Of a DNA stretch of 64,000 nt, positions 36,882-53,517 are shown piece by piece. The stretch's first letter is position 1, and each line of letters starts with the position of its first letter. Source of the DNA: Candidatus Brocadiia bacterium (lineage in GTDB: Bacteria; Planctomycetota; Brocadiia; CAIUPP01); NCBI GenBank assembly GCA_050015075.1, contig JBEKCB010000004.1:64001-128000 (forward strand), read 5' to 3'. The position numbers were made by a program, and so were the translations under genes. The notes under the pieces are model-generated. The model was not told where the DNA came from. It saw only the letters and a list, made by a program, of their open reading frames with translations, and did no database searches.

Positions 36882-38069
36882 ATGATGATGTGGCAGCGCG
36901 TTCTGACGACAGGCGTCGTGCTGCTGGTCGCGACCGTTGCCGTCGCCGCGGACGAGGCCAAACCTGAGGCCTCCAATCCCTATGCGCAATGGAAGAACGG
37001 GCCGCCGAAGGATGCTTCCTTCTTCCCCATCGCCGTCTGGTGTCAGGACCCCGCGAATGCGGCCAAGTTTAAGAATGCGGGCATCAACGTATATATGGCC
37101 CTATGGAAAGGTCCGACCGAAGCCGACCTCGCTACGCTCAAGAAGGCCGGAGTATTGCTCATCTGCGACCAGAATGCCGTCGGCCTGGCTCACAAGAACG
37201 ATCCGACGATTATCGGCTGGATGCACGGCGACGAACCGGACAACGCCCAGGAGGTCCCGGGCGGCAAAGGCTACGGGCCGCCCATACTGCCGGCCAAGAT
37301 CATTGCCGGATACGAAGCGGCCGTCAAGGCGGACCCCACCCGGCCGGTGTTGCTCAATCTCGGCCGATCCGTGGCCTGGAACGGCTTTCCGGATCGCGGC
37401 GTGCGCTCCGAGCATGACGAAGATTACGCCGAATATGCCAAGGGAAGCGACATCGTCTCGTTCGACGTCTACCCCGTGTCGAACGTAGAGAAGCCAGCGG
37501 TCAAAGGCCAGTTGAATTTGGTTGCCCACGGCGTGGAGAACCTGATCAAGTGGACCGAAGGACACAAGATCGTCTGGAACGTCATCGAATGCACCGCGAT
37601 TAACGGAGCCGGGAAGGCGACGCCCAAGCAGGTCAAAGCCGAAGTCTGGATGAGCCTGGTGAGCGGGAGCCAGGGAATCACCTATTTCGTCCATCAATTC
37701 AAGCCCACCTTCGATGAGCACGCGCTGCTGGACGATCCGCCGATGCTCACCGCGGTGACGGCGCTCAACAAGCAGATCCATGAACTCGCCCCCGCTCTGA
37801 ACAGCCCCACCGTGAAGGACGCGGTCAAGGTGGAATGCTCGAACAAGGAGGTGCCGGTGGCGGCCATGGTGAAGAAAGAAGGCGGCGCAACGTACGTCTT
37901 TGCAGTTGCCATGAAGGCCGGCGAAACGGAAGCGACGTTCGGCCTGGAGGGTCTTCCTGCCGGCGCGCAGGTCGAAGTCCTCGGCGAAAACCGGAAGATT
38001 GAGCCGGCGGAGGGGAAGTTCAAGGACCGCTTCAGCAACTGGGACGTGCATCTCTATCGGATCAAATAG
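36882..38069 (+). CDS. Secreted GH-like protein, array copy 1
   Basis: Signal peptide, DEPDN, FDVYP, WNVIECT, ends WDVHLYRIK. Confidence 0.9.
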   Translation: MMMWQRVLTTGVVLLVATVAVAADEAKPEASNPYAQWKNGPPKDASFFPIAVWCQDPANAAKFKNAGINVYMALWKGPTEADLATLKKAGVLLICDQNAVGLAHKNDPTIIGWMHGDEPDNAQEVPGGKGYGPPILPAKIIAGYEAAVKADPTRPVLLNLGRSVAWNGFPDRGVRSEHDEDYAEYAKGSDIVSFDVYPVSNVEKPAVKGQLNLVAHGVENLIKWTEGHKIVWNVIECTAINGAGKATPKQVKAEVWMSLVSGSQGITYFVHQFKPTFDEHALLDDPPMLTAVTALNKQIHELAPALNSPTVKDAVKVECSNKEVPVAAMVKKEGGATYVFAVAMKAGETEATFGLEGLPAGAQVEVLGENRKIEPAEGKFKDRFSNWDVHLYRIK

Positions 38070-38083
38070 TCAAAGGAGAAACG

Positions 38084-39274
38084 ATGATGATCGGGCGGCG
38101 AGTCCTGGCGACGTGCGCTGTTCTTTTGGCCGCGACCATTGCCGCCGGCGCGGATGAAGCTAAACCGGCGGCCTCCAATCCCTATGCGCAATGGAAGAAC
38201 GGGCCGCCGAAGGATGCCGGCTACTTCCCCATCGCCGTCTGGCTGCAGGCCCCGGCGAACGCCGCCCGGTACAAGAACGCGGGCATCAATGTCTATGTCG
38301 GCTTGTGGCAGGGGCCGACGACAGCCCAACTCGCCGAGCTCAAGAAAAACGGAATGCAGGTCATCTGCGACCAGAATGCCGTCGGCCTGGCCCACAAAGA
38401 CGACCCGACCATCATCGGCTGGATGCACGGAGACGAACCGGACAATGCCCAGGAGCTCCCGGGCGGCAAAGGCTACGGGCAGCCCATATTGCCCTCCAAG
38501 ATCTTTGCGGAATACGAAGCGGTCCGCAAGACGGACCCCACTCGGCCGGTGCTCCTCAACCTCGGCGTGGGAGTGGCCTGGGACGGCTGGTACGGCCGCA
38601 ATGTGCCGGAGAATCTGCGGGAGACCTACGCCGAATCCCAGTACGTCAAGGGATGCGACGTCGTCTCGTTCGACATCTACCCCGTGGCGTCGGACGACGC
38701 GGCGGTCAAAAACAAGCTGGACTTCGTCGCCCTGGGCGTCGAGCGGCTGGTCAAGTGGACCGACGGGCGCAAGGTCGTTTGGAACTGCATCGAATGCGGA
38801 CGGATCGGCGGGACCGGCAAGGCGACGCCCAAGCAGGTCAAAGCGGAAGTCTGGATGAGCCTGGTGCATGGGAGCCAGGGAATCATCTATTTCGTCCATC
38901 AATTCAAGCCGACCTTTAACGAGCACTCGCTCCTGGACGATCCCGAGATGCTCGTCGCAGTGACGGCGCTGGACAAGCAGATCCATGAGCTCGCCCCCGC
39001 GCTGAACAGCCCCACCGTGAAGGACACGCTCAAGGTGGAATCCTCGAATAAGGAGGTGCCGGTGGCGGCCATGGTGAAGAAGGAAGGCGGAGCGACGTAC
39101 GTCTTCGCCGTCGCCATGAAGCCCGGCGAGACGGAAACCACGTTCGCTCTCGAGGGTCTCCCTGCCGGCGCGCAGATCGAAGTCCTCGGCGAAAACCGGA
39201 AGATTGAGCCGGCGGACGGCAAGTTCACGGACCGTTTCAGCAACTGGGACGTGCATCTCTACCGAGTCAAATAG
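38084..39274 (+). CDS. Secreted GH-like protein, array copy 2
   Basis: Paralog of copy 1; AAGGAG RBS. Confidence 0.9.
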   Translation: MMIGRRVLATCAVLLAATIAAGADEAKPAASNPYAQWKNGPPKDAGYFPIAVWLQAPANAARYKNAGINVYVGLWQGPTTAQLAELKKNGMQVICDQNAVGLAHKDDPTIIGWMHGDEPDNAQELPGGKGYGQPILPSKIFAEYEAVRKTDPTRPVLLNLGVGVAWDGWYGRNVPENLRETYAESQYVKGCDVVSFDIYPVASDDAAVKNKLDFVALGVERLVKWTDGRKVVWNCIECGRIGGTGKATPKQVKAEVWMSLVHGSQGIIYFVHQFKPTFNEHSLLDDPEMLVAVTALDKQIHELAPALNSPTVKDTLKVESSNKEVPVAAMVKKEGGATYVFAVAMKPGETETTFALEGLPAGAQIEVLGENRKIEPADGKFTDRFSNWDVHLYRVK

Positions 39275-39290
39275 TCAAAGGAGGGCAACG

Positions 39291-40454
39291 ATGATCGTGC
39301 GGCGAGTTCTGGCGACGTGCGTTATCCTGCTGGCTGCGACCGTCGCCGCCGGTGCGGACGAAGCGAAACCTGAGTTCTCCAGCCCCTACGCGCAATGGAA
39401 GAACGGTCCGTCGAAGGACGACGCCTACTTCCCCATCGCCGTCTGGTGCCAGGAGCCTGTTATGGCGCCCGAGTACCAGAAAGCGGGCATCAATCTGTAC
39501 TTCGCGCTCTGGGAAGGGCCGACCGAGGCCCAGCTCGCCGAGCTGAAGAAAGACGGAATGCAGGTCGTCTGCGCGCAGAACGCCGTCGGCCTGGCGCATA
39601 TTGACGACCCGACCATCGTCGGCTGGATGCACGGCGACGAACCTGACAATGCCCAAAGCGGCGGCGCGCCCGTGCCGCCGGCGAAGATCGTCGAGGAATA
39701 CGAAGCGATCCGCAAGGCGGATCCTTCGCGGCCGGTGTTCGTCAATTTCGGCCGGGGCGTGGCCTGGGACGGCTGGAAGGGCCGTGGCACACGGAACAAT
39801 CACCCCGAGGACTTCGCCGAGTACATCAAGGGATGCGATATCGCCTCGTTCGACATCTATCCCGTGGCGAACATGCCGGCGAACCTCCGGGGCCAGTTGG
39901 ATTTCGTCGGCCACGGCGTCGAGCGGCTGGTCAAGTGGTGCGATGGGGGCAAGTACGCCTGGAACGCCCTCGAATGCACGCGGATCCACGGCGATGACAA
40001 GCCGACGCCCAAGCAGGTCAGGACGGAAGTCTGGATGAGCCTGGTGAAGGGAAGCCGCGGAATCATCTACTTCGTCCATCAATTCCTGCCCAAGTTTGAC
40101 GAGCATGCGCTGCTGGACGATCCCGAGATGCTCGCCGCGGTGACGGCGATCAATCGGCAGATCACGAGGCTCGCGCCCGTGCTGAACAGCCCCACCATTC
40201 CGGACGGAGTCAAGGTGGAATCCTCGAATAAGGACGTGCCGCTGGCGACCATGGTGAAGAAGCAAGGCGGCGCGACGTACATCTTCGCCGTCGCCATGAA
40301 GGCCGGCGCAACGGATGCCACCTTCACGCTCGACGGTCTCGCCGCCGGCGCGCAGGTCAGGGTCGTCGGCGAACGCCGGAGCATTGAGCCGGCGGACGGC
40401 AAGATTCGCGACCACTTCGACGACTGGGACGCGCATATCTATCGGATCCGGTAG
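39291..40454 (+). CDS. Secreted GH-like protein, array copy 3
   Basis: Paralog; AAGGAGG RBS; shorter loop after DEPDN. Confidence 0.9.
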   Translation: MIVRRVLATCVILLAATVAAGADEAKPEFSSPYAQWKNGPSKDDAYFPIAVWCQEPVMAPEYQKAGINLYFALWEGPTEAQLAELKKDGMQVVCAQNAVGLAHIDDPTIVGWMHGDEPDNAQSGGAPVPPAKIVEEYEAIRKADPSRPVFVNFGRGVAWDGWKGRGTRNNHPEDFAEYIKGCDIASFDIYPVANMPANLRGQLDFVGHGVERLVKWCDGGKYAWNALECTRIHGDDKPTPKQVRTEVWMSLVKGSRGIIYFVHQFLPKFDEHALLDDPEMLAAVTAINRQITRLAPVLNSPTIPDGVKVESSNKDVPLATMVKKQGGATYIFAVAMKAGATDATFTLDGLAAGAQVRVVGERRSIEPADGKIRDHFDDWDAHIYRIR

Positions 40455-40523
40455 ATGGCGGCTTTCAAGCCGTATGGGTTGTGCGCGCCCGCGTCACCGG
40501 ATTACCAGCGAAAAGGAGCAACG

Positions 40524-41711
40524 ATGATAATCTGGCGTCGAGTTCTGACGGCGGCCGTGGTCCTGCTGGCGGCGACCATCGCCGCAGGCGCGGACGAGGC
40601 TAAACCTGAGTACTCCAGCCCGTATGCGCAGTGGAAGAACGGGCCGCCGAAGGATGAGTCCTATTTCCCCATTGCCGTCTGGAACCAGAACCCGATGAAC
40701 GCGGCCAGGTACCAGAAGGCGGGCATCAATCTTTACATCGGCCTGTGGGAAGGTCCGACTGAGGTCCAGCTCGCCGAGCTGAAGAAACACGGAATGCCGG
40801 TCATCTGCGACCAGAACGCCGTGGGCCTGGCTCACGTTAACGATCCGACCATTATCGGCTGGATGCAGCAGGACGAACCGGACAATTCCCAGGAGATCCC
40901 GGGCAAGGAAGGTTACACGCCGCCGATCACGCCGGCCAGGGTCCTTGAGATCTATCAGGCGCTCCGCAAGGCGGATTCCACGCGGCCGGTGTTCCTCGGC
41001 CTCGGCCAGGGCGTGGCCTGGGACAACTGGTTCGGCCGCGGTGTACGCACCAATCACCCGGAGGACTACGCTGAGTACGTCAAGGGGTGCGACATCGCCG
41101 ACTTCGATATCTATCCCATGTCGCACGATAACCCGCAGGTCTATGGCAAGCTGGATTTCGTCGCCAAGGGCGTCGAGCGGCTGGTCAAGTGGACCGAAGG
41201 CCGCAAAATCGTCTGGAACACGATGGAATGCACGCTGATCGGCGGCTCGAATACCAGGCCGACGCCCAAGCAGGTCAAAGCGGAAGTCTGGATGAGCCTG
41301 GTGCACGGAAGCCGCGGAATCCAGTATTTCGTTTGTTCATTCAAGCCAACGTTCAAGGAGTACGCGCTGCTGGACGATCCCGAGATGCTCTCTGCGGTGA
41401 CGGCGATCAACAAGGAAATCCGGGAACTCGCGCCGGTGCTGAACAGCCCCACCATCAAGGACGCGCTCAAGGTGGAATCCTCGAACAAGGACGTGCCGGT
41501 GGCGACGATGGTGAAGAAGCACGGCGGCGCGACGTACGTCTTTGCCGTCGCCATGAAGGCCGGCGAGACGGAAGCCGCCTTCGCCCTCGAAGGTCTCCCT
41601 GCCGCCGCGCAGGTCGAAGTCATCGGCGAGAAGCGGAAGATCGAGCCGGCGGACGGCAAGTTCAAGGACCGCTTCGGCGGCTGGGACGTGCATCTCTATC
41701 GGATCAAGTAG
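40524..41711 (+). CDS. Secreted GH-like protein, array copy 4
   Basis: Paralog; AAGGAG RBS. Confidence 0.9.
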   Translation: MIIWRRVLTAAVVLLAATIAAGADEAKPEYSSPYAQWKNGPPKDESYFPIAVWNQNPMNAARYQKAGINLYIGLWEGPTEVQLAELKKHGMPVICDQNAVGLAHVNDPTIIGWMQQDEPDNSQEIPGKEGYTPPITPARVLEIYQALRKADSTRPVFLGLGQGVAWDNWFGRGVRTNHPEDYAEYVKGCDIADFDIYPMSHDNPQVYGKLDFVAKGVERLVKWTEGRKIVWNTMECTLIGGSNTRPTPKQVKAEVWMSLVHGSRGIQYFVCSFKPTFKEYALLDDPEMLSAVTAINKEIRELAPVLNSPTIKDALKVESSNKDVPVATMVKKHGGATYVFAVAMKAGETEAAFALEGLPAAAQVEVIGEKRKIEPADGKFKDRFGGWDVHLYRIK

Positions 41712-41725
41712 GTAAAGGAGAAACG

Positions 41726-42916
41726 ATGATGATCGGGCGGCGAGTCCTGACGACATGCGCTATCCTGCTGGCCGCGACTATTGCCGCCGGCGCTGACGAA
41801 GCGAAGCCGGCGCCCGCCAATCCTTACGTGCAATGGAAGAACGGGCCGCCGAAGGATGCCGGCTACTTCCCCATCGCCGTCTGGTGCCAGGTGCCGGGCG
41901 ATGCGGCCAGGTACAGGCAGGCGGGCATCAATCTTTACGTCGCCCTGTGGGATGGGCCGACCGAGGCCCAGCTTGCCGAGCTCAAGAAATGCGGAATGCA
42001 GGTCATCTGCGAGCAGAACGCCGTGGGCCTGGCCCATAAGGACGACCCGACTATTGTCGGCTGGCTGCAGCCCGACGAGCCCGACAATGCGCAGGAGCTT
42101 CCGGGAGGCAAGGGTTGGGGACTGCCCATCTCGCCGGCCGAGATTCATAAGGGCTACGACGCGATGCGCAAGGCGGATTCCACGCGGCCGGTGTACTGTG
42201 GCCTCGGCGTAGGTGTGGCCTGGGACGGCTGGTACGGCCGCAACGTGCCTGCGGATAAACGCGACGAATACGCCGAGCCGCAGTATCTTAAGGGATGTGA
42301 TATCGTCGGCTTCGACATCTATCCCGCGGCGTCGGGCGACGCGGCGGTCAAAGGCAAGCTGGATTTCGTCGCCCTGGGCGTCAGCCGGCTGTACAAATGG
42401 GCCGACGGAAAGAAGATCGTCTGGAATACCATCGAGTGCACGAACATCTCGGGCGCGGGCAAAGCGACGCCCAAGCAGGTCAAGGCGGAATTCTGGATGA
42501 GCCTGGTGCGCGGCAGCCAGGGAGTCCTCTATTTCTGCCATCAAATGGGCCCCAAGTTTGACGAGCACGCGCTGCTGGACGATCCGGAGATGCTCGCCGG
42601 GGTGACGGCGATCAACAAGCAGGTCCATGAGCTTGCGCCCGCGCTGAACAGCCCCACCGTCAAGGACGCGCTCAAAGTGGAATGCTCGAACCAGGCCGTG
42701 CCGGTGGCGACGATGGTGAAGAAGGAAGGCGGCGCGACGTACATCTTCGCCGTCGCCATGCAGCCGGGCGAGACGGAAGCCGCGTTCACCCTCGACGGAC
42801 TCCCCGCCGGCGCGAAGGTTGAAGTCATCGGCGAAAACCGGAAGATTGAGCCGGCGGACGGCAAGTTCAAGGACCGCTTCAGCGACTGGGACGTGCATCT
42901 CTACCGGATCAAGTAG
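41726..42916 (+). CDS. Secreted GH-like protein, array copy 5
   Basis: Paralog; AAGGAG RBS (ORF-track start at 41189 is an artefactual extension). Confidence 0.9.
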   Translation: MMIGRRVLTTCAILLAATIAAGADEAKPAPANPYVQWKNGPPKDAGYFPIAVWCQVPGDAARYRQAGINLYVALWDGPTEAQLAELKKCGMQVICEQNAVGLAHKDDPTIVGWLQPDEPDNAQELPGGKGWGLPISPAEIHKGYDAMRKADSTRPVYCGLGVGVAWDGWYGRNVPADKRDEYAEPQYLKGCDIVGFDIYPAASGDAAVKGKLDFVALGVSRLYKWADGKKIVWNTIECTNISGAGKATPKQVKAEFWMSLVRGSQGVLYFCHQMGPKFDEHALLDDPEMLAGVTAINKQVHELAPALNSPTVKDALKVECSNQAVPVATMVKKEGGATYIFAVAMQPGETEAAFTLDGLPAGAKVEVIGENRKIEPADGKFKDRFSDWDVHLYRIK

Positions 42917-42927
42917 GAAAAGGAGAA

Positions 42928-44115
42928 ATGATGATCATCGGGCGGCAAGTCCTGACGACGTGCGCTCTCTTGCTGGCCGCCACCATTGCCGCCGGCGCGG
43001 ACGAGGCCAAGCCTCAGGGCTCCAGTCCGTACGTGCAATGGAAGAACGGGCCGCCGAAGGATGAGTCCTATTTCCCCATCGTCGTCTGGGACCAGGAGCC
43101 GAGCGATGCGCCCCGGTACCAGAAGGCGGGCTTCAATCTTTACAACGGCCTGTGGATGGGGCCGACCGAAGCCCAGCTCGCCGAGCTCAAGAAACACGGA
43201 ATGCACGTCATCTGCGACCAGAACGCCGTGGGCCTGGCTCATAAGGACGACCCGATCATTGTCGGCTGGCTGCAGGAGGACGAGCCTGACAATTCCCAGT
43301 CGCTGCCCGGAGGCAAAGGCTACGGACCGCCTATTCTGCCAGCTAAGATCATTAAGATATACGAAGCGATGCGCAAGGCGGATCCCACGCGGCCGGTGTT
43401 CCTGGGTTTCGGCCAGTCGGTGGCCTGGGACGGCTATAATGGCCGTGGCGAGCGCAGCGGGCATCCCGAGGACTACGCCGAGTACGCCAAGGGAGGCGAC
43501 ATCGTCGCGTTCGACGTCTACCCCGTGTCGCACGGAGAACGGGAGATCAAAGGCAAGCCGGAGTACGTCGGCCTGGGCGTCGAGCGGCTGGTCAAGTGGA
43601 CCGGAGGACGCAAGATCGTCTGGAACACCGTCGAATGCACCGCGATTGACGGGGCCGGCAAGGCGACGCCCAAGCAGGTCAAAGCGGAAGTCTGGATGAG
43701 CCTGGTGCACGGGAGCCAGGGAATTCAGTATTTCGTCCATGAATTCAAGCCGAGAGAGAACGACCACGCGCTCCTGGATGACCCGAAGATGCTCGCCGCG
43801 GTGACGGCGATCAACAAGCAGATCCATGAACTCGCGCCGGCGCTGAACAGCCCCACCGTCAAGGACGCGCTGAAGGTGGAGTCCTCGAACAAGGACGTGC
43901 CGGTGGCGGCCATGGTGAAGAAGCACGGCGGCGCGACCTATGTCTTCGCCGTCCCCATGAAGGCCGGCGCCACGGAAGCCGTCATCACCCTCGACGGTCT
44001 TCCTGCCGGCGCGAAGGTCGAAGTCCTCGGCGAGGACCGGAAGATCGAGCCGGCGGATGGCAAGTTTCAGGACCACTTCGGCGACTGGGACGTGCACCTC
44101 TATCGGATCAAGTAG
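42928..44115 (+). CDS. Secreted GH-like protein, array copy 6
   Basis: Paralog; AAGGAG RBS. Confidence 0.9.
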   Translation: MMIIGRQVLTTCALLLAATIAAGADEAKPQGSSPYVQWKNGPPKDESYFPIVVWDQEPSDAPRYQKAGFNLYNGLWMGPTEAQLAELKKHGMHVICDQNAVGLAHKDDPIIVGWLQEDEPDNSQSLPGGKGYGPPILPAKIIKIYEAMRKADPTRPVFLGFGQSVAWDGYNGRGERSGHPEDYAEYAKGGDIVAFDVYPVSHGEREIKGKPEYVGLGVERLVKWTGGRKIVWNTVECTAIDGAGKATPKQVKAEVWMSLVHGSQGIQYFVHEFKPRENDHALLDDPKMLAAVTAINKQIHELAPALNSPTVKDALKVESSNKDVPVAAMVKKHGGATYVFAVPMKAGATEAVITLDGLPAGAKVEVLGEDRKIEPADGKFQDHFGDWDVHLYRIK

Positions 44116-44221
44116 GCGCCGGTCTTCGCGCTGACCGCGACCGGCGTCATGGCCTTAATGAGTTACAGCCGCAAAGCGGCGCAGGAAGGCCCTGCCTGTC
44201 CAAGCCACAAAGGAGCTGGAG

Positions 44222-45502
44222 ATGGCGGCGATGCAGATGATGGCTTTATGCCCGGCGTTCCTGACGCTCTTCGCCGCATCCCGCGCGATGGCTGAGAACC
44301 CGGCGTGGCCCGTCAAGGTCAGCCCGAACGGACGCTATTTCGTCGGCCAGGACGGCAAGCCGATCTTCTGGCTCGGCACAACCCAATGGGAACTCTTCCA
44401 CGGATATACTCTCGAGGACGCCCGGACGATCCTGCATCAGACCCGCAGCCATGGATTCACCTTCGTCCAGGTGATGCTCCTGGGCGTAAGCGACGGCACG
44501 AAGCCCAACGTGTACGGCGAGAAGCCCTGGATCAATGACAATCCGCTCACGCCGAACGAGGCGTACTTCAGGAACGTGGATGCCGTCGTGAAGGCCGCAC
44601 GCGCCGAGAACCTGACCATCCTGTTGACTACATACCATCAGAGCTGGCGCAAGTACATCACGGTGGAGAACGCGCGGGCCTGGACGAAATGGGTCTCGGC
44701 GCGTTACAAGGACGCGCCGAACATGGCCTGGACGATGAACCCGCAGGCGAAAGAGGAGTTCATCCCCGTCATCCGCGAGCTGGTTGCGGGCCTGCGAGAG
44801 GGAGACGACGGGCGCCACCTGATCAGCGCGAAGCCGGATCCCTCGCCTTTTTCGTCCAGCTTCGTCCACCCGGAGCCGTTGTTCGATTTCAACGCGATGC
44901 AGACCTGGAATGCCGTCCAGCTCATCTACCCCATGGTGACGCACGACTACCAGCTCAAGCCGGTGAAGCCCGTGCTCATGGCGGAAGGCGCGTACGAGGC
45001 GGGCTCCGAATACGGGTTCGAGGTCACGCCGCTCTGGGTTCGGCGGCAGGCCTACTACTCCTACCTGGCCGGCGCGCACCATACCTATGGGCATAACGCC
45101 AGTTGGCGCGTTCTGCCGAGTTGGAAGTCGGCGCTGGATGCGCCCGGCGCGCAACAGATGGGCATCCTCCGCAAGGTGTTCGAAGCGCGCGCGGAGTGGT
45201 GGCTGCTGGCGCCCGATCAATCCCTTTTCGCCGACGGCGGCCAGACGGAGGGTCAGATCCTTCACCTGGCGGCGCGGCACCAGGGCGGCAAATGGGCGAT
45301 GCTCTATCTCGCGGACAAGGCCGAGTTCAGCGTGGACCTCAGCAAGCTGAAAGGGCCCGGAGTCAGCGCCTTCTGGTGCAATCCGCAGTCGGGCGATAAG
45401 ACGCCGATCGAGCCGCTGACGAACAAGGAAGTGAAGCGCTTCTCAACGCCCGAAGGCTGGGAGGACGCTCTCCTGATCCTGGAGACAAAGGAGGAACGAT
45501 GA
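44222..45502 (+). CDS. DUF4038 / apiosidase-like (GH140-related) secreted protein with C-terminal beta-sandwich
   Basis: VSPNGRYF..DGKPIFWLG, GFTFVQV, KPVLMAEGAYE, HTYGHN, W..ALDAPGA. Confidence 0.8.
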   Translation: MAAMQMMALCPAFLTLFAASRAMAENPAWPVKVSPNGRYFVGQDGKPIFWLGTTQWELFHGYTLEDARTILHQTRSHGFTFVQVMLLGVSDGTKPNVYGEKPWINDNPLTPNEAYFRNVDAVVKAARAENLTILLTTYHQSWRKYITVENARAWTKWVSARYKDAPNMAWTMNPQAKEEFIPVIRELVAGLREGDDGRHLISAKPDPSPFSSSFVHPEPLFDFNAMQTWNAVQLIYPMVTHDYQLKPVKPVLMAEGAYEAGSEYGFEVTPLWVRRQAYYSYLAGAHHTYGHNASWRVLPSWKSALDAPGAQQMGILRKVFEARAEWWLLAPDQSLFADGGQTEGQILHLAARHQGGKWAMLYLADKAEFSVDLSKLKGPGVSAFWCNPQSGDKTPIEPLTNKEVKRFSTPEGWEDALLILETKEER

Positions 45503-46680
45503 TGATGTGGCAACGTGTGCTGGCGACCTCCGTTATCCTGCTGGCGGCGGCCCTTGCCGCCGGCGCCGACGAAGCGCAACCCGAAGCGCCCGGTCCCTAT
45601 GCGCAATGGAAGAATGGGCCGGGAAAGGATGCTTCCTACTTCCCGCTCGCCGTCTGGGCGCAGGAGCCGCGCGATGCGGCCGGGTACAAGAAGGCGGGTA
45701 TCAATCTTTACATCGGCCTGGAGGGGCAACCCGACGCCGCGCTCGCAGAGTTGAAGAAAGCGGGGATGCCGGTCATCTGCGACCAGAATGCAAGGACTCT
45801 GGCCCACAAGGACGATCCGATCATCGTCGGCTGGATGCACGGCGACGAACCCGACAACGCCCAGGAGGTGCCCGGAAGCAAAGGCTACGGGCCGCCCGTG
45901 CTGCCGGCCAAGATCATCGCGGAGTACGAAGCGTTCCGCAAGGCGGATCCTTCCCGGCCGGTGCTGCTCAATCTCGGCCGATGCGTGGCCTGCGACGACC
46001 TGCCTGACCGCGACGGCCGTAGCCATCACCCGGAGGATTATCCCGAATACCTCAAAGGCTGCGACATCGGCTCGTTCGACATTTACCCCGTGGCGCATTC
46101 GTCCCCGCCGTACGCCGGCAAGCTGGATTTCGTCGGCACGGGCGTCGAGCGGCTGATCAAGTGGACCGACGGGCGCAAGCCTGTCTGGAACTGCATGGAA
46201 TGCACGCGGATCCACGGAGAAGACAAGCCGACGCCCAAGCAGGTCAAAGCGGAAATCTGGATCGGCCTGGTGCACGGGAGCCAGGGAATCATCTACTTCT
46301 GCCATCAGTTCCTGCCCAAGGAGGACGACCACGCGCTCCTGGACGATCCGCCGATGCTCGCCGCGGTCGGGGCGATCAACAAGGAGATCCTGGAACTGGC
46401 GCCGGCGCTGAACAGCCCCACTGTCAAGGACGCACTCAAGGTGGAATCCTCGAACGCCGAGGTGCCGCTGGCGACGATGGTCAAGAAGCAAGGCGGCGCG
46501 ACCTACATCTTTGCCGTCACCATGAAACCCGGCGAGACGCAAGCCGTCTACACCCTCGAGGGCCTCCCTGCCGGCGCGCAGGTCGAAGTCCTGGGCGAAA
46601 ACCGGAAGATCGAGCCGGTGAAGGGCAAGTTCAAGGACCACTTCGGCCACTGGGACGTGCATCTCTATCGGATCAAGTAG
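45499..46680 (+). CDS. Secreted GH-like protein, array copy 7
   Basis: Paralog; ATGA overlap with the DUF4038 gene. Confidence 0.9.
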   Translation: MMMWQRVLATSVILLAAALAAGADEAQPEAPGPYAQWKNGPGKDASYFPLAVWAQEPRDAAGYKKAGINLYIGLEGQPDAALAELKKAGMPVICDQNARTLAHKDDPIIVGWMHGDEPDNAQEVPGSKGYGPPVLPAKIIAEYEAFRKADPSRPVLLNLGRCVACDDLPDRDGRSHHPEDYPEYLKGCDIGSFDIYPVAHSSPPYAGKLDFVGTGVERLIKWTDGRKPVWNCMECTRIHGEDKPTPKQVKAEIWIGLVHGSQGIIYFCHQFLPKEDDHALLDDPPMLAAVGAINKEILELAPALNSPTVKDALKVESSNAEVPLATMVKKQGGATYIFAVTMKPGETQAVYTLEGLPAGAQVEVLGENRKIEPVKGKFKDHFGHWDVHLYRIK

Positions 46681-46702
46681 ACAACCAAGGAGGAAGAAGA
46701 CG

Positions 46703-47884
46703 ATGTGGCAGCGAGTTCTGACGACCGCCGCCGTGATTCTGTCCGCGACGATGGCCGCAGGCGCCGACGAAACGAAACCTGAGTTCGTCAGTCCCTATGC
46801 GCAATGGAAGAACGGGCCGTCGAAGGATGACTCCTTCTTCCCCATCGGCGTCTGTACGCAGGAGCCGAGCGATGCGCCCAGGTACCAGAAGGCGGGCATC
46901 AATTTTTACGAGGGCCTGTGGAAGGGGCCGACCGAAGCCCAGCTCGCCGAGCTCAAGAAATGGGGAATGTCGGTCTCGTGCAGCCAGAATGCCGTGGGCC
47001 TCGCCCACAAGGACGATCCGATCATCATCGCCTGGGAGATCGAAGAGGACGAACCCGACAACGCCCAGGCGCTCCCGGCAGGCAATGACTACGGGCCGCC
47101 GATATTGCCGGTCAAGGTCGTCCAGGAGTACGAAGCGATCCGCAAGGCGGATCCCACGCGGCCGGTGTTCCTCTGTCTCGGCCAGGGCGTGGCCTGGGAC
47201 GGCTGGGTCGGCCGCGGCGTGCGCACCAATCACCCCGAGGACTACCCCGAGTACGCCAAGGCGTGCGACATCGCCGCGTATGACATCTACCCCGCGGCGC
47301 ACACGAACCCGCAGGTCAAAGGCAAGCTGGATTTCGTCGCCCGGGGCGTCGAGCGGCTGGTCAAGTGGACCGGCGGACGCAAGCCGGTCTGGAACGCCAT
47401 CGAATGCACGCGCATCAATTCGGACACCAAGGCGACGCCCAAGCAGGTCAAGGCGGAAGTCTGGATGAGCCTGGTCCACGGCGCCGCCGGAATCCTGTAT
47501 TTCGTCCATGAATGGAAGCCCAAGTTCGACGAGCACGCGCTGCTGGACGATCCCGAGATGCTCGCGGCGGTGACGGCGATCAACGGGCAGATCAGGGAAC
47601 TCGCCCCGGCGTTGAACAGCCCCACTTTCAAGGACGCGCTCAAGGTGGAATCCTCGAACACGGGCGTGCCGGTGGCGGCCATGGTGAAGAGGCGCGGCGG
47701 CGCGACGTACGTCTTTGCCGTCGCCATGAAGCCCGGCGCGACGGAAGCCGCCTTCACACTCGAAGGTCTCCCTGCCGGCGCGCAGGTTGAAGTCATCGGC
47801 GAAAACCGGAAGATCGAGCCGGCGGGCGGCGAGTTCAAGGACCGTTTCGGCGACTGGGACGTGCATCTCTACCGGATCAAGTAG
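46703..47884 (+). CDS. Secreted GH-like protein, array copy 8
   Basis: Paralog; AAGGAGG RBS. Confidence 0.9.
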   Translation: MWQRVLTTAAVILSATMAAGADETKPEFVSPYAQWKNGPSKDDSFFPIGVCTQEPSDAPRYQKAGINFYEGLWKGPTEAQLAELKKWGMSVSCSQNAVGLAHKDDPIIIAWEIEEDEPDNAQALPAGNDYGPPILPVKVVQEYEAIRKADPTRPVFLCLGQGVAWDGWVGRGVRTNHPEDYPEYAKACDIAAYDIYPAAHTNPQVKGKLDFVARGVERLVKWTGGRKPVWNAIECTRINSDTKATPKQVKAEVWMSLVHGAAGILYFVHEWKPKFDEHALLDDPEMLAAVTAINGQIRELAPALNSPTFKDALKVESSNTGVPVAAMVKRRGGATYVFAVAMKPGATEAAFTLEGLPAGAQVEVIGENRKIEPAGGEFKDRFGDWDVHLYRIK

Positions 47885-47904
47885 ACAACCAAGGAGGAAC
47901 GAAG

Positions 47905-49083
47905 ATGATGTGGCACCGAGTCCTGACGACAGGCGTTTTAGTGCTGGCCGCGACCATTGCCGCCGGCGCCGACGAGGCTAAACCCGAGGCCGCCGGTCCC
48001 TACGCGCAATGGCAGAACGGGCCGCCGAAGGATGACTCCTATTTTCCGCTCGCGGTCTGGGCGCAGGAGCCGAGCGACGCGCCGAGGTATCAGAAGGCGG
48101 GCATCAATCTGTTCATCGGCCTGGAGGGGCGCGCCGATTCCGCACTCGCCGAGCTGAAGAAATATGGAATGCACGTCATCTGCGGCCAGGATGCTCGGAC
48201 TATGGCCCACAAGGACGATCCGACCATTGTCGGCTGGATGCAGGGCGACGAACCCGACAATGCCCAGGACCTGCCGGGACACAATGGCTACGGGCCGCCC
48301 ATATTGCCGGCCAAGATCATTGCGAAATACGAAGCGATGCGCAAGGCGGATCCAACCCGGCCGGTGTTCCTCAATCTCGGCCGGGCCACGGCCTGGGATG
48401 AGCTTCCCGACCGCGGCGAGCGCAGCAGGCATCCCGAGGACTACGTCGAGTACGTCAAGGGATGCGACATCGCCTCGTTCGACATCTACCCGGTGGCGCA
48501 GAACGACCCGAAGGTCAAGAACAAGCTGGAGTTCGTCGGCAAGGGCGTCGAGCGGCTGGTCAAGTTCACCGACGGGCGCAAGCCGGTCTGGAACTGCATC
48601 GAATGCACGCGGATTGACGGCGGCGACAAGGCGTCGCCCAAACAGGTCAAGGCGGAAGTCTGGATCGCCCTGGTGCATGGGAGCCACGGAATCGTCTATT
48701 TCTGCCATGCCTTCAAGCCCACAGAGGATGACCACGCGATCCTGGACGATCCCGAGAACCTCGCCGCGGTGACGGCGATCAACGGGCAGATCCGGGAACT
48801 CGCCCCTGCGCTGAACAGCCCCACCATCAAGGGCGCGCTCAAGGTGGAATCCTCGAACGAGGACTTGCCGGTGGCGGCCATGGTGAAGAAGCACGGCGGC
48901 GCGACCTACGTCTTCGCCGTCGCCATGAAGCCCGGCGAGACGGAAGCCAGCTTCACCCTCGAGGGTCTCCCGGCCGGCGCGAAGGTCGAAGTCCTCGGCG
49001 AGGGCCGGAAGATCGAGCCGGCCGACGGCAAGTTCAAGGACGCCTTCAAGGACTGGGACGTCCACCTCTATCGGATCAAGTGA
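47905..49083 (+). CDS. Secreted GH-like protein, array copy 9
   Basis: Paralog; AAGGAGG RBS. Confidence 0.9.
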   Translation: MMWHRVLTTGVLVLAATIAAGADEAKPEAAGPYAQWQNGPPKDDSYFPLAVWAQEPSDAPRYQKAGINLFIGLEGRADSALAELKKYGMHVICGQDARTMAHKDDPTIVGWMQGDEPDNAQDLPGHNGYGPPILPAKIIAKYEAMRKADPTRPVFLNLGRATAWDELPDRGERSRHPEDYVEYVKGCDIASFDIYPVAQNDPKVKNKLEFVGKGVERLVKFTDGRKPVWNCIECTRIDGGDKASPKQVKAEVWIALVHGSHGIVYFCHAFKPTEDDHAILDDPENLAAVTAINGQIRELAPALNSPTIKGALKVESSNEDLPVAAMVKKHGGATYVFAVAMKPGETEASFTLEGLPAGAKVEVLGEGRKIEPADGKFKDAFKDWDVHLYRIK

Positions 49084-49146
49084 AGCAGGTTCGTGACAGC
49101 CGCGGACCGCCGGTCACCTGAAAACCATGGTTGAAAAAGAAAAGCG

Positions 49147-50013
49147 GTGAAAACGAAGCACTGGGCTGCCGTTGCTCTATGCACGGGACTGATCGCCGCG
49201 TTCACCGCCGTCATTGCGCTCAATTACGGCCTCTTTTCACCGGGCCATGTCCAGGCGCTGTCCCGCGCCTGGTTCATGGTGCTGGTCGCGGCCTTCCTGA
49301 CCGGCTACATTGACACCTGCGTCGGCGGCGGCCACGGCACGCTGCTGACTCCGGTCCTCATTCTCCTGGGATTCACGGCCGCGATGGTGGTCCCGGCCGT
49401 TCTCCTGTCTGAGATCGCCATCGGCATCCTGGCCACCATCCTGAATCACCGCGCGGGCAACATTCGCCTGGCGCAGGGCGAGCAGCACCGCCGCGTGCTT
49501 CTCGTGCTGGCCGCGTGCTCGCTGGTCGGCTCGTTCATCGCGGTGACGGTGGCCATGCAGGCGCCGCCGAAATGGGTCAACGCCTACATCGGCATGATGA
49601 TCATGGCAGTGGGAGTTCTGCTCCTGGCGGGACGAGGGATTCCCCGCAAGTTCTCGATGCGGCGGATCGCGGTCCTGGGCACGATCGCCGCGTTCAACAA
49701 GGGCCTGTCCGGCGGCGGCTACGGGCCCCTGCTCACCAGCGGCCAGATTCTCTCGGGAGTGGGCGAGAAAGGCGCGGTGAGCATCACGCCGCCCGCCCGC
49801 GGGTTGACCAGCCTGTTCGCGGTGACGCTGTACTTCGCGGCCAGGGGCCGCCTGGAATTGAACTTGGCCGCCCCGCTCATTATCGGCTCCCTGCTGGCGA
49901 TGCCGGCGGCCGTCGGCACGATTACCTGGATCGAGGCCCCGATGCTGCGGAAAGGCATCACCGTGGCCACCCTGATCCTCGGCGCACTGCTCGTGATCAA
50001 GGCGTTTCATTGA
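49147..50013 (+). CDS. TauE/SafE-family (sulfite exporter-like) membrane protein
   Basis: Multi-TM protein with duplicated Gly motifs VGGGHGTLLTP and SGGGYGPLLT. Confidence 0.8.
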   Translation: MKTKHWAAVALCTGLIAAFTAVIALNYGLFSPGHVQALSRAWFMVLVAAFLTGYIDTCVGGGHGTLLTPVLILLGFTAAMVVPAVLLSEIAIGILATILNHRAGNIRLAQGEQHRRVLLVLAACSLVGSFIAVTVAMQAPPKWVNAYIGMMIMAVGVLLLAGRGIPRKFSMRRIAVLGTIAAFNKGLSGGGYGPLLTSGQILSGVGEKGAVSITPPARGLTSLFAVTLYFAARGRLELNLAAPLIIGSLLAMPAAVGTITWIEAPMLRKGITVATLILGALLVIKAFH

Positions 50014-50057
50014 ACGGTATTCCGGGAAACACGACCCGCATGGAAATGGAGAGACTC

Positions 50058-52175
50058 GTGAAGTACCTCCCTTTCGTCAGCGCGGCGCTGCTCCTCGCGA
50101 GCGCCTGTCCTGCATGGGCGCTGGAACCCGCCAATCTCAAGGCCGACGCGCAGGCCCGCGCGATCCTCAATTACCTGGAGAGGCTTCCGCGGCAGGCCGA
50201 CAAGAGGCTGCTCTCGGGGCAGTTCATTAATTTCGGCCCTTCCGCCAAGCTGGAGATCTGCTCGGAGATCCACGATAAGACGGGCCACTGGCCGGCGATC
50301 ATCGGCTTGGACTACGCCGACTTCGCCAGGGGCGGCCTGGTGTACAAGACCGTCAACCGCCTGGCCGTCGAGTACGCCCGGCAAGGCGGCCTGATCACCA
50401 TCTCCGCGCACCTCTACAACCCGGCGAATCCCAACGGCGGCGGCCTCCGCGACGAGGGTGTGGACCTGCAGAAACTCCTCTCGCCCGGCAACGACGCCCA
50501 TGACCGCTGGATGAAGGAACTGGACACCCTCGCCGCCGGGCTGAAGGAGTTGCAGGACGCCGGCGTGGTCGTCCTTTGGCGGCCGTTCCACGAGATGAAC
50601 GGCGGCTGGTTCTGGTGGGGCGCGAAGGACCCCGAGACCTTCATCCGCCTCTGGCGGCACATGTTCGATTACTTCACCGGGACCAAGGGCTTGAACAACC
50701 TGCTATGGGTCTACTCGCCCAACCACGGCGACAAGACCGCCGACTACTATGCCGGGGACCAGTACGTGGACATCGTCGGCCTCGACGCCTACACGGATTT
50801 TGTGGACCCGCAGCACATTCGCGGCTACGACGCCGTGGCCGAGCTGCCCAAACCGTTCGCCTTCACCGAGTTCGGCCCGCATGGCCCGCAAGACCCGCCG
50901 GGCGACTACGATTACCTCCGCTTCATCGGCGGCGTCGAGAAGTATTTTCCCAAGACGACTTTCTTTCTCGCCTGGAACGACAAATGGAGTCTCGCCCGGA
51001 ACCGGAACGTGAAGCAACTCCTGGAGCATCCCTGGCTGGTCAACCGCGAGGACCTGCCTGAAGCGCTGGCACCGCAGCACGCCAGTCCCTACGCGCAATG
51101 GAAGAACGGGCCGCCGAAGGATGACTCGTACTTCCCCATCGCCGTGTGGGACCAGGAGCCCAGTCATGCGGCCGAGTACCGGAAGGCGGGCATCAATCTC
51201 TACATCGGACTGTGGGACGGGCCGACCGAGGCCCAGCTCGCCGAGCTCAAGAAATGCGGGATGCCGGTCATCTGCGACCAGAATGCCGTGGGCCTGGCTC
51301 ACAAGGATGATCCGATCATTGTCGGCTGGATACGCGGCGATGAGCCCGACAACGCCCAGCCGCTCCCGGCCGGCGGCGGCTACGGACCGCCCATACTGCC
51401 GGCGAAAATCGTGGAGCAATACGAGGCGATGCGCACGGCGGATCCCTCGCGCCCGGTGCTCCTCTGGCTCGGCTTGGGCGTGGCCTGGGATGGCTGGTTC
51501 GGCCGCGGCGTGCGCACCAATCACCCCGAGGACTACGCGGAGTACGTCAAGGGGTGCGACATCGCCGCGTTCGACATCTACCCCGTGGCGGACCCGCGCC
51601 CGGAGTTCGCAGGCAAGCTGGATTTCGTCGGCCGGGGCGTGGAGCGGCTGGTCCAGTGGACTGACGGACGCCAGCCCGTCTGGGATTCCATCGAGTGCAC
51701 GCGCATCAATTCGGGCGCCAGGCCGACGCCGAAGCAGGTCAAGGCGGAAGTCTGGATCAGCCTGGTGCATGGCAGCCGCGGAATCAAGTATTTCTGCCAT
51801 GAATGGAAGCCCAAGTTCAACGATCACGCGCTTCTCGACGACCCCGATATGCTCGCTGCGGTGACGGCGATCAACCGGCAGATTCGGGAACTCGCGCCTG
51901 CGCTGAACAGCCCCACCGTCAAGGACGCGCTCAAGGTGAAATCCTCGAACAAGGACGTGCCGGTGGCCACCATGGTCAAGAAGGAAGGCGGCGCGATGTA
52001 CGTCTTTGCCGTCGCCATGGGGCCCGGCGAAACGGAAGCCGCCTTCACCCTCGACGGCCTCCCCGCCGGCGCGCAGGTCGAAGTCCTCGGCGAATACCGG
52101 AAGGTCGAGCCGGCGGATGGCAAGTTTCAGGACCGCTTTTGCGACTGGGATGTGCATCTCTACCAGATCAGGTAG
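50058..52175 (+). CDS. GH26 (mannanase-like) domain fused to array copy 10
   Basis: Signal peptide, WRPFHEMNGGWFWWG, PFAFTEFGP; from ~51081 the array domain lacking its own signal peptide; GGAGAG RBS before GTG. Confidence 0.9.
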   Translation: MKYLPFVSAALLLASACPAWALEPANLKADAQARAILNYLERLPRQADKRLLSGQFINFGPSAKLEICSEIHDKTGHWPAIIGLDYADFARGGLVYKTVNRLAVEYARQGGLITISAHLYNPANPNGGGLRDEGVDLQKLLSPGNDAHDRWMKELDTLAAGLKELQDAGVVVLWRPFHEMNGGWFWWGAKDPETFIRLWRHMFDYFTGTKGLNNLLWVYSPNHGDKTADYYAGDQYVDIVGLDAYTDFVDPQHIRGYDAVAELPKPFAFTEFGPHGPQDPPGDYDYLRFIGGVEKYFPKTTFFLAWNDKWSLARNRNVKQLLEHPWLVNREDLPEALAPQHASPYAQWKNGPPKDDSYFPIAVWDQEPSHAAEYRKAGINLYIGLWDGPTEAQLAELKKCGMPVICDQNAVGLAHKDDPIIVGWIRGDEPDNAQPLPAGGGYGPPILPAKIVEQYEAMRTADPSRPVLLWLGLGVAWDGWFGRGVRTNHPEDYAEYVKGCDIAAFDIYPVADPRPEFAGKLDFVGRGVERLVQWTDGRQPVWDSIECTRINSGARPTPKQVKAEVWISLVHGSRGIKYFCHEWKPKFNDHALLDDPDMLAAVTAINRQIRELAPALNSPTVKDALKVKSSNKDVPVATMVKKEGGAMYVFAVAMGPGETEAAFTLDGLPAGAQVEVLGEYRKVEPADGKFQDRFCDWDVHLYQIR

Positions 52176-52281
52176 AGCGCCTCCGCGCTGAGTTGCGCGC
52201 TCGGCGGACCCGTGGTACGATTCAGATGCAAGTTCCGTGCAGGTCCGGCCGCTTTACTCCGAGTTGATGAAAGGCAAAACG

Positions 52282-53517
52282 ATGCTGCGAAAGAATCTGC
52301 CGGTCGGTTTGCTGCTGGCTGCCGCAATGCTGGCGGCTCCCGCCTTCGGCGCCGATGCTGAGAAAGCCGGCCTTGATCCGGCCACGAGAAAAGAGGCGCT
52401 GAAAGCCATCGAGGGTGGCGTGCAGTGGCTCAAGAGCTGCCAAAAGGAGGACGGCTCCTGGTCGTTGAAGCAGTACCCGGCCATCACCGCCCTGGCGGCG
52501 CGGGCGATCCTCGAAGACCCGTCGCGTCCGGTGAACCAGATGGACCCGGCCGCCGAAAAGGGGCTCGCGTATGTCGCCTCGTGCGCACGCCCGGACGGCG
52601 GCATCTACTGCCAGGTCCCCGTCGAAAAAGGCGGCAGCCAGGCGAACTACAACACCGCCGCCTCGCTGATCGGGATCGCCGCGGCGCACGAGACCGAGTA
52701 CGAGCCGCTCATCCGCGCCGCGCGCAGCTACCTCATACACACTCAGCATCTCGAGAAGGACGACTACTACGGCGGCTGGGGCTATGACGCCAGCCGCAAG
52801 GACCCGCACGCGGACATGAGCAACACCGGATTCACGATGCAGGCGCTGTACGTCACCGCGCGCCCGCCGAAGCCGGCCGAGACCGCCAAGCCGGCGCAGA
52901 CCGAGACACCGCCGCCTGAAGCGGTTCCCGACGATCCGAACTGGGCAGCGGCGACGGCGTTCCTCTCCCATTGCCAGAACCTGGCGTCCGATGCCGAGAA
53001 GGAGCGGGCGGTGAGCAAGCTGCCGCGGGACGTCGGCGGATTCCATTATCATCCCAATGCCAGCATGGCCGGCGGCGAGCTGGATGAGGACGGGCGGCAG
53101 ATCTGGCATTCCTATGGCAACGCCACGGCGCTTGGGCTGGAGTGTCTCCTCGAGGCCCACGTGGACCGCAAGGACCCGCGCGTCGCCGCGACGGTCAACT
53201 GGCTCCGCTCGAACTATAACCTCGCTGAGCATCCCGGCGGCATGGGCAAGTCGGGATTGTATTTCTTCTACCACACCCTCGCGCGGGCGCTCTCGATGTA
53301 CGGCGAAGAGCCGCTGAAGCGCGCGGACCAGCCGGCGGCGGACTGGCGGCGCGGGCTGATCGAGAAGCTCGTCGCCCTGCAGCGCACCGACCCGCAGACC
53401 GGCCGGAAGTACTGGGTCAACGACGACGCGCGCTGGATGGAGAACGACCCCGTGCTCGTCACCGCCTACAGCGTGCTGGCGCTCGAGACGCTCGTGAAGG
53501 CGCCGCAGAAACAGTGA
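52282..53517 (+). CDS. Secreted prenyltransferase/squalene-cyclase-repeat (alpha/alpha barrel) protein
   Basis: QW-like repeats WLKSCQKEDGSW, GGWGY, DMSNT, GGFHY; signal peptide. Confidence 0.85.
   Translation: MLRKNLPVGLLLAAAMLAAPAFGADAEKAGLDPATRKEALKAIEGGVQWLKSCQKEDGSWSLKQYPAITALAARAILEDPSRPVNQMDPAAEKGLAYVASCARPDGGIYCQVPVEKGGSQANYNTAASLIGIAAAHETEYEPLIRAARSYLIHTQHLEKDDYYGGWGYDASRKDPHADMSNTGFTMQALYVTARPPKPAETAKPAQTETPPPEAVPDDPNWAAATAFLSHCQNLASDAEKERAVSKLPRDVGGFHYHPNASMAGGELDEDGRQIWHSYGNATALGLECLLEAHVDRKDPRVAATVNWLRSNYNLAEHPGGMGKSGLYFFYHTLARALSMYGEEPLKRADQPAADWRRGLIEKLVALQRTDPQTGRKYWVNDDARWMENDPVLVTAYSVLALETLVKAPQKQ

Follow-up and report, generated by a model that had tools for sequence, protein, structure and literature searches.

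A tandem array of ten putative glycosidase paralogues in a peat-metagenome planctomycete: stable lineages, conserved loops and possible old exchange

The DNA analysed here, called the window in the following, is a stretch of 64,000 nt from a Candidatus Brocadiia bacterium (contig JBEKCB010000004.1, positions 64,001 to 128,000). At window positions 36882-52175 it contains ten paralogous genes, all on the plus strand and each coding for about 395 amino acids (aa). The source genome (G000) is a metagenome bin of 4.64 Mb and 93.6% completeness, in which 14 close copies of the gene were found in total, four of them dispersed outside the array. According to the original prediction for this locus, variants of the substrate-binding loops are shared between the copies in conflicting patterns, and gene conversion or unequal crossing-over shuffles them as a generator of new specificities. 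Our analysis argues with good confidence for something else, namely an ancient, stable and subfunctionalised tandem array of glycosidases, the copies of which are inherited vertically without active loop shuffling.

Nine copies are free-standing, complete open reading frames (ORFs) with a start codon and a conserved signal peptide, spaced by 11-69 nt. The tenth is part of a fusion gene (50040-52175, 711 aa) with two putative catalytic domains, the first of which belongs to glycoside hydrolase (GH) family 26. The ORFs are intact in all ten copies. The genes and domains of the array are as follows:

36882..38069, plus strand: copy 1, 395 aa, with signal peptide, barrel and β-sandwich, defined by ORF and alignment; its orthologue in the congeneric genome G001 is B1
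38084..39274, plus strand: copy 2, 396 aa, with the loop allele GVGVAWDGWYGRNVP and its 2-residue insertion
39291..40454, plus strand: copy 3, 387 aa, start set by signal-peptide homology; its counterpart in G001 is interrupted
40524..41711, plus strand: copy 4, 395 aa, start set by homology
41726..42916, plus strand: copy 5, 396 aa, start set by homology
42928..44115, plus strand: copy 6, 395 aa, used for the structure model
44222..45502, plus strand: GH140-like apiosidase gene (PF13204, E 2.4e-62), which interrupts the array; its last 4 nt are shared with the start of copy 7
45499..46680, plus strand: copy 7, 393 aa
46703..47884, plus strand: copy 8, 393 aa
47905..49083, plus strand: copy 9, 392 aa
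49147..50013, plus strand: gene of a TauE/SafE-family membrane protein (PF01925, E 1.7e-23), which interrupts the array
50040..51071, plus strand: GH26 domain (PF02156, E 6.2e-64), which forms the N-terminal half of the fusion, starts with ATG and carries its own signal peptide
51072..52175, plus strand: copy 10, a family domain without its own signal peptide, in-frame C-terminal part of the GH26 fusion

Profile searches assigned no Pfam or NCBIfam family to the array protein. Copy 6 scored against the Pfam model of GH42 (PF02449) with E 0.069 and 12.9 bits and did not reach the gathering threshold of 21 bits, and 46 of 85 family members had a match to this model, in every case a sub-threshold one (best E 2e-4). 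The automatic names in the source databases are 'GH42 N-terminal domain-containing' and 'beta-galactosidase'. More than 3300 relatives were found at E <= 1e-10; in a survey in which at most six candidates were scored per genome, the family was present in 25 of 301 sampled genomes of the phylum, mostly with one or two matches. Distant family matches (31-33% identity, residues 132-395) also lie within frames of 1011-1077 aa on other contigs of the source genome (C8:22205-22966, C7:29721-30467, C10:64780-65502). In the titles and abstract openings covered by our literature search, no paper on the family or the array turned up.

The predicted structure of copy 6 (mean predicted local distance difference test score 91.3, built on an 85-sequence alignment) consists of a signal peptide, a barrel of eight β/α units (residues ~34-306) and one C-terminal β-sandwich (residues 307-395). 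With an exhaustive structural aligner, the nearest structure was the GH164 enzyme 6t5o (Z 25.7, 336 residues aligned, root-mean-square deviation 4.0, 10% identity), followed by five GH42 chains (5xb7, 3tts, 4ucf, 4oif and 1kwk; Z 22.2-24.5, 13-17% identity in the structural alignment) and by GH5 and GH140 structures at Z 20.5-20.7 (GH140 8t9w, Z 20.7). This was more informative than Foldseek against the PDB, which returned merely generic barrels (GH13, GH30 and GH39) with template modelling scores of 0.42-0.51; sequence searches of the PDB matched no solved chain at E below 0.03. The model thus places the array proteins among the (β/α)8-barrels of clan GH-A type, with GH164 and GH42 as the structurally nearest families. 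In clan GH-A, the catalytic pair consists of two glutamates, an acid/base after strand β4 in an N-E-P motif and a nucleophile after β7. In the modelled copy 6, Glu119 and Glu236 lie just after predicted β4 and at the end of predicted β7 and are the putative catalytic pair; the motif at β4 is D-E-P-D-N, unlike N-E-P. Glu236 also aligns with the sequence MECT of the GH42 chain 4oif in a non-significant HMMER match (E 0.86). The fold suggests glycosidase activity, for which the GH140-like and GH26 genes in the array provide circumstantial context. The putative active-site codons and the two loop-bearing blocks of copy 6 are located as follows:

43282..43284, plus strand: codon of Glu119 in DEPDN, just after predicted β4, at least 90% conserved in 85 sequences; putative acid/base
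43411..43560, plus strand: block L1, residues 162-211, predicted loops β5→α5 and β6→α6, separated by helix α5; of all blocks, the one in which the paralogues diverge most
43633..43635, plus strand: codon of Glu236 in ECT, at the end of predicted β7, invariant in 85 sequences; putative nucleophile
43636..43782, plus strand: block L2, residues 237-285, predicted β7→α7 and β8→α8 loops, with the motifs CTRIxG.. and HxFxPK

The copies are 76-85% identical to each other in DNA and 66-77% in protein sequence. All six patterns of shared motifs which had been noticed were indeed present in the protein alignment of the ten copies: GVGVAWDGWYGRNVP is common to copies 2 and 5, GRGVRTNHPEDY to copies 4, 8 and 10, LGR...PDR to copies 1, 7 and 9, CTRIHG.DKPT and HQFLPK to copies 3 and 7, and CTRINS and HEWKPKF to copies 8 and 10, while the shortened IGLEG is limited to copies 7 and 9. 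Among the more constant stretches, TPKQVKAEVW is exact in six of the ten copies, with one or two changes in the remaining four, and PALNSPT is exact in eight. When the mean pairwise mismatch between 13 close paralogues was mapped on the predicted structure, it was highest in the β→α loops of the catalytic face (0.386), followed by strands (0.359), helices (0.281), α→β loops (0.241) and the C-terminal domain (0.216). The excess in the β→α loops was significant in Mann-Whitney tests against all other positions (p 5e-5) and against the rest of the barrel (p 0.003), and these loops, with 86 of the 362 scored positions, contain 22 of the 60 most variable ones. The diversification is therefore focused on the predicted catalytic face, as had been proposed, to a moderate extent: the enrichment is real, yet the barrel strands are almost equally variable.

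Decisive for the question of shuffling was the comparison with G001, a metagenome bin of the same genus with a completeness of about 91% (copies of G000 are designated A and those of G001 B). The first nine copies have the identical order in the two independent bins. In the whole-gene tree, the A and B members join as a pair with 100% bootstrap in all ten lineages which are intact in both genomes (two dispersed copies and array copies 1, 2 and 4-9), and both pieces of the interrupted B3 group with A3. The same pairing was mostly recovered at 96-100% bootstrap when the gene was divided into four segments, which correspond to the N-terminal part (N), the blocks L1 and L2, and the C-terminal domain (C). 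It was weaker for A9/B9 in N (84) and for A6/B6 (55) and A_C12/B_C89 (93) in C; A1/B1 in N and in C, and A8/B8 in L2, were not resolved as clades. The loop alleles are identical or nearly identical between the orthologues of the two genomes. Furthermore, when 109 additional proteins of other origin were included in a tree, deeper orthologues with the respective loop alleles turned up for every paralogue lineage. Judged by these sequences from G001 and from distant metagenome proteins, each paralogue forms an orthologous lineage of its own with lineage-conserved residues. The deep nodes of the whole-gene tree are poorly resolved (bootstraps 11-70).

The arrays of the two genomes differ by one deletion and one insertion, neither of which lies between homologous points of neighbouring copies. 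The copy-10 domain is cleanly deleted in G001 (~1.08 kb; L013:17800-17980 versus window 51010-51110 and 52130-52265), where the GH26 gene stops nine codons into the family domain and then joins the sequence which follows copy 10. Therefore, the GH26 fusion is ancestral and the domain was lost in G001. The second difference is a 713-nt insert which splits copy 3 of G001 inside the L1 loop, after GRGTRNN (L013:5941-6653, contig C57). It occurs once in G001, is absent from G000, and may be a real insertion or a chimera of the bin.

The selection pattern points in the same direction as the orthology. At a synonymous divergence (dS) of ~0.26 between orthologues, the ratio of nonsynonymous to synonymous divergence (dN/dS) was 0.15 in N, 0.09 in L1, 0.11 in L2 and 0.21 in C, i.e. 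the loop-bearing segments have the lowest values of the gene. Before the species split, the paralogues diverged with dN/dS values of 0.87 (N), 1.33 (L1), 1.00 (L2) and 0.62 (C); these have wide intervals, were obtained by distance arithmetic on pairwise Nei-Gojobori (NG86) estimates, and are probably inflated, since the Jukes-Cantor correction at a GC content of ~0.8-0.85 in third codon positions probably underestimates the paralogue dS. The synonymous divergence between paralogues is ~1.4-1.9 times that of orthologues, and the proportion of synonymous differences (pS) to the outgroup (0.44-0.61) is not saturated. Low paralogue dS, a pre-split dN/dS of 0.6-1.3 and the segment incongruence described below fit a late, rapid burst of duplications with adaptive change of the catalytic face. 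The C-terminal β-sandwich (alignment columns 291-405; 43846-44112 in copy 6) stands apart as the part which is most alike among paralogues and changes fastest between orthologues, with an orthologue protein mismatch of 0.113 at the dN/dS of 0.21 mentioned above. When five more distant contig sets were included, its orthologue identity (0.73-0.82) equalled the paralogue identity, so that this domain carries no lineage signal at that depth.

Traces of exchange after the species split were searched for in several ways. No two array copies share an identical run of more than 55 nt, a length which lies in the range obtained by permuting columns (p 0.06). In quartets, site patterns uniting copies within a genome showed no overall excess over the control patterns when counted by pairs (69/65, 27/24, 29/11 and 68/61) or by columns (37/33, 14/15, 17/9 and 47/33). 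The apparent excess in L2 (29 versus 11 pairs, p 0.006) corresponds to 17 versus 9 columns, which is not significant, and reflects a few columns in which three G001 copies underwent parallel change. At alignment column 271 (~43729-43731 in copy 6), B5, B6 and B7 carry Asn, where their G000 partners have His or Arg (HGS/RGS to NGS); either parallel change or conversion over a very short stretch within G001 may explain this. The nearest sequence was never a non-orthologue in windows starting at columns 141-201. A non-orthologue was nearest in 104 of 730 windows, concentrated at columns >= 291 and <= 60, and this raised the possibility of post-split conversion in the C-terminal domain, which was dismissed: the domain shows no within-genome quartet excess and lacks an orthology signal at depth. 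The pattern thus amounts to noise, as the variable sites of this domain are few and toggle fast. Finally, there was no sign of concerted evolution, with identities of 0.795-0.798 within genomes versus 0.795 across them in the C-terminal domain and 0.668-0.675 versus 0.671 in the barrel.

A dedicated machinery was also missing, in agreement with the original prediction: among the 38 scanned ORFs of the window, which are housekeeping or carbohydrate genes, there was no reverse transcriptase, integrase or invertase, and RecR was the sole recombination protein. The one RVT_1 match in the whole genome lies on another contig (G000:C17:83141-83566, E 1.4e-14, in an open frame of 628 aa). Apart from the array, the window is ordinary chromosome with gyrA, chorismate synthase, cysS, dnaX, recR, rpoN and others. 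Directly upstream of the array lies an MttB-family (trimethylamine methyltransferase-like) gene (35366-36757; PF06253, E 1.5e-59), which shows no internal stop on read-through and is thus a member without an in-frame stop codon. The array is followed by a gene (52237-53517) with a weak match to the α-α-toroid of squalene-hopene cyclases and prenyltransferases (PF13243, E 7.6e-10), which has the same place in G001.

Sequence nearly identical to window positions 39291-49083 was found in 24 public runs from 23 studies (2017-2025), 23 labelled as peat and one as wetland metagenome, and 12 of the 24 contain at least half of the sampled words. In four peat runs of four studies (2018-2025), 719 of 946 contig pieces were 99+% identical to the array stretch (128/148, 194/247, 195/254 and 202/297), and all 30 bins of this stretch were covered in the four runs, mostly at that identity. 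The public contigs break inside the array (listed pieces of 344-1828 nt), and five joints between copies were seen, four of them in one run each and one (39198 to 52146) in two runs. They are seen in single contigs of low depth, the shorter side of which has 20-51 letters. One of them (38907 to 43761) falls at a 50-nt identical run of copies 2 and 6, where a 31-mer assembly can switch from one copy to the other. The public runs consist of assembled contigs in short pieces, from which neither real joints nor a lack of rare recombinants can be demonstrated. The five joints thus speak neither for nor against recombination.

How, then, are the conflicting loop alleles to be explained? Most of the conflicts dissolve when outgroups and deeper orthologues are considered. 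The motif GRG(V/T)RT.H.EDY is present in the outgroup (G015), in the divergent copy A_C6 and in dispersed copies, and CTRI(S/E).. and HEW.P occur in the outgroup and in the dispersed copy A_C12. As GRGVRTNHPEDY, CTRI(N/S)S and HEW.P are thus found in the outgroup and in dispersed copies, they are retained ancestral states, and this includes the sharing between copies 4, 8 and 10. Copies 2 and 5 form a clade, which is recognisable by an insertion of two residues (YAE[SP]Q), and copies 7 and 9 as well as 8 and 10 are clades. Lineage 3 is the sister of 7/9, so that CTRIHG.DKPT and HQFLPK may have been present in the ancestor of that clade and have disappeared in copy 9; HQFLP is also present in A_C6. 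In line with this, constraint tests at the DNA level accepted 7+9 in four of four segments and 2+5 everywhere, while 3+7 was preferred in no segment, cost 15.7 log-likelihood units in L2 and was rejected in N (p 0.0009). Only lineage 1 remains, for which the segments marginally and reciprocally contradict each other: a 1+2 clade is rejected in L1 (p 0.039), and a 1+7+9 clade in L2 (p 0.036) and in C (p 0.040). Old exchange or convergence is left as a weak possibility only for the likeness of its L1 loop to that of 7/9. Thus, the loop motifs common to several copies mostly go back to shared ancestry or to retained ancestral states.

Purely vertical descent, on the other hand, meets several results which weigh against it. 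Already among the ten copies, each segment rejected the trees of the other segments in approximately unbiased (AU) tests (p <= 0.013). With 25 sequences, neither L1 (AU p 0.012) nor the C-terminal domain (p 0.0017) was compatible with the whole-gene tree, which for the C-terminal domain was rejected by third codon positions alone as well (p 2e-4). The likelihood gains of the segment trees over a common tree (14.5, 28.1, 19.6 and 54.2) exceeded those in 40 of 40 single-tree simulations per segment under the general time-reversible model with gamma rates (GTR+G4; maxima 4.0, 11.7, 4.3 and 12.9), so that vertical divergence alone does not account for the data in full. These simulations rest on a simple nucleotide model, and incongruence can also be mimicked by rate shifts or by parallel change under selection. 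The pairwise homoplasy index (PHI) was significant over all sites (p 0.0003-0.005) with a tiny effect (0.536-0.546 versus 0.561), and the signal, which within-codon adjacency may inflate, was weak once codon positions were separated (p 0.02-0.18 for third and 0.08-0.17 for first and second positions). Furthermore, the low paralogue dS fits a late burst of duplications, and would also fit homogenisation by gene conversion until shortly before the species split. A caveat to the whole reading is that G000 and G001 are bins, with a completeness of 93.6% and about 91%. The segment breakpoints were first picked from the same data: in a data-driven search, the corrected Akaike information criterion improved with ever more segments and mixed rate differences with topology, and the search was used solely to define the segments.

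Individual tracts were sought in a triplet scan of the 3SEQ type, in which 13 of 6146 triplets passed the Bonferroni correction. Eleven of the 13 pair A2, A5 or B5 with the divergent A_C6 and were set aside as the mark of a locally accelerated 2/5 lineage rather than of mosaics, and the scan thus revealed no clear loop mosaic. Short candidate tracts with the orthologue as the major parent are one in B9 from copy 7 (columns 45-65, p 0.034 after correction for 6146 triplets) and those in B_C31, A_C3 and B_C89 (columns 309-355, raw p 1e-5 to 5e-5). In the L1 loop of copies 2 and 5, the sharing is at the protein level (proportion of nonsynonymous differences, pN, 0.14), yet a pS of 0.36 is no lower than in other pairs. 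Taken together, a single tree for all segments fails in the AU tests and the parametric bootstrap, and of the proposed mosaic structure there remains some plausible old recombination between paralogues before the species split, mainly of the C-terminal domain against the barrel. Recombination is a plausible cause of the segment incongruence, and episodic selection and rate shifts could yield part of the signal.

These results bear directly on the idea of an ancient shuffling, in which gene conversion or unequal crossing-over during the radiation produced true mosaics that aided the specificities, and which stopped when the copies became too divergent. The incongruent segment trees, the persistence of the C-domain signal at third codon positions, the reciprocal rejections for 1+2 versus 1+7+9, the short candidate tracts and the low paralogue dS relative to orthologue dS all speak for it. 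However, none of the specific loop conflicts that had been put forward requires recombination, copies 2 and 5 show no reduced pS in L1, most significant triplets reflect an accelerated lineage, and the test for incongruence relies on a simple simulation model and on breakpoints first chosen from the data. We regard this explanation as possible, with the balance tilted against it. Somewhat more tentative still is the specific notion that the array was partly built by recombination as domain-scale mosaics, in which the C-terminal β-sandwich and the N-terminal half were exchanged against the loop-bearing centre. It is similarly doubtful that selection shielded the diverging active-site loops from being overwritten, so that the specificities are partly a product of a shuffling which is since frozen. 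Convergence, i.e. independent selection of the motifs LGR...PDR in copy 1 versus 7/9 and HQFLP in 3, 7 and A_C6, appears unlikely. It could explain why lineage 1 goes with 2/5 on the whole gene, yet has an L1 loop like that of 7/9 including its basal members, with a support of merely 42% for the 1+(7,9) clade in L1, and the pre-split dN/dS of ~1.3 in L1 indicates that adaptive change did occur there; but with deep nodes so poorly resolved and 1+7+9 not rejected in N and L1, shared ancestry is possible as well.

An active combinatorial generator, in which ongoing conversion or unequal crossing-over moves loop alleles and yields new specificities, we consider very improbable. Homologous copies in tandem, on one strand and at short distances are a substrate for homologous recombination, and the five contig joints could be read in this sense. 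Against this stand the 1:1 positional orthology, in which the loops stayed identical over a split of dS ~0.26, loops with the lowest dN/dS, the same order of the first nine copies with differences elsewhere than between homologous points of neighbours, and the lack of long identical tracts between the copies, while the joints are of low depth with short flanks and one is explicable by a shared run of 50 nt. A recombination of the loops as a working generator of specificity is thus not supported. Hardly more credible is an artefact, i.e. an array or mosaic pattern created by mis-joined strains or collapsed repeats. Although G000 and G001 are bins, public contigs break within the array and the 713-nt insert in copy 3 of G001 is odd and unique, the order of the first nine copies agrees between independent bins, the runs of four studies cover the stretch in each of its 30 bins, and every ORF is intact.

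Based on these observations, the likely history of the array is as follows. It arose by a burst of duplications, during which the copies diverged fast, chiefly in the loops and strand ends lining the catalytic face; early exchange between paralogues is probable, mainly at the scale of whole domains (C-terminal β-sandwich versus barrel). Later, each copy was inherited vertically as a stable lineage under strong purifying selection. The copies may be co-transcribed and presumably differ in specificity; most likely each acts, beside the GH140-like and GH26 enzymes, on a sugar linkage of its own within a complex polysaccharide of plants or mosses. A generator of specificity which works without a recombinase would have mattered, and this claim does not hold. 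What the locus offers is a large family without a name, distantly like GH42 and GH164 and expanded to 14 copies in a planctomycete from peat metagenomes, and a natural experiment of fast change at the catalytic face after duplication followed by strict conservation. The ten neighbours are a ready panel for the loop residues which set specificity in this fold, and could also reveal the linkages of plant or moss polysaccharides that the organism attacks in peat.

Systems of programmed variation, such as diversity-generating retroelements, cassette conversion of the pilE/pilS type and shufflons, resemble the array in having several homologous copies with differences clustered in binding regions, but the array has no near-identical pair of template and variable repeats, its longest shared run being 55 nt. 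In a diversity-generating retroelement, a reverse transcriptase lies beside a pair of template and variable repeats differing at adenines, whereas no such enzyme is found among the 38 scanned ORFs of the window and the array copies differ throughout their length. Cassette systems like pilE/pilS and vls have one expressed locus and silent partial cassettes, with variation between close isolates. In contrast, the array copies are complete, secreted genes under selection (the tenth fused in frame), and their loops are unchanged between congeneric genomes. Under concerted evolution by gene conversion, paralogues within a genome are more alike than orthologues between genomes. The array is comparable in its tandem homologues and in a C-terminal domain that varies far less between copies than the barrel does; unlike such systems, its A/B orthologues pair at 100%, quartet patterns are symmetric, and identity within genomes is not higher.

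On the side of enzymes, the array protein shares with GH42 β-galactosidases and α-L-arabinopyranosidases the predicted (β/α)8 barrel followed by a β-sandwich, and one Glu each just after β4 and in the ...ECT motif that closes β7. GH42 enzymes, however, have a three-domain architecture with a trimerisation domain, and the array protein is shorter (~395 aa versus 644-686 in the matched chains), has no middle trimerisation domain and stays below the Pfam cut-off. The GH164 β-mannosidase 6t5o is the best structural match, and copy 10 is fused to a domain of GH26, a family which includes β-mannanases; 6t5o differs by its 658 residues with extra domains and by the identity of only 10%. Tandem expansions of carbohydrate-active enzymes which diverge in their substrate-binding loops are a general pattern of duplication and subfunctionalisation. 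The array differs from them by its unusually large size (14 close copies in one genome of 4.6 Mb) and by a family without a Pfam or NCBIfam model, and agrees with them in its same-strand paralogues beside other glycosidases, the divergence at the catalytic face and the stable orthologues.

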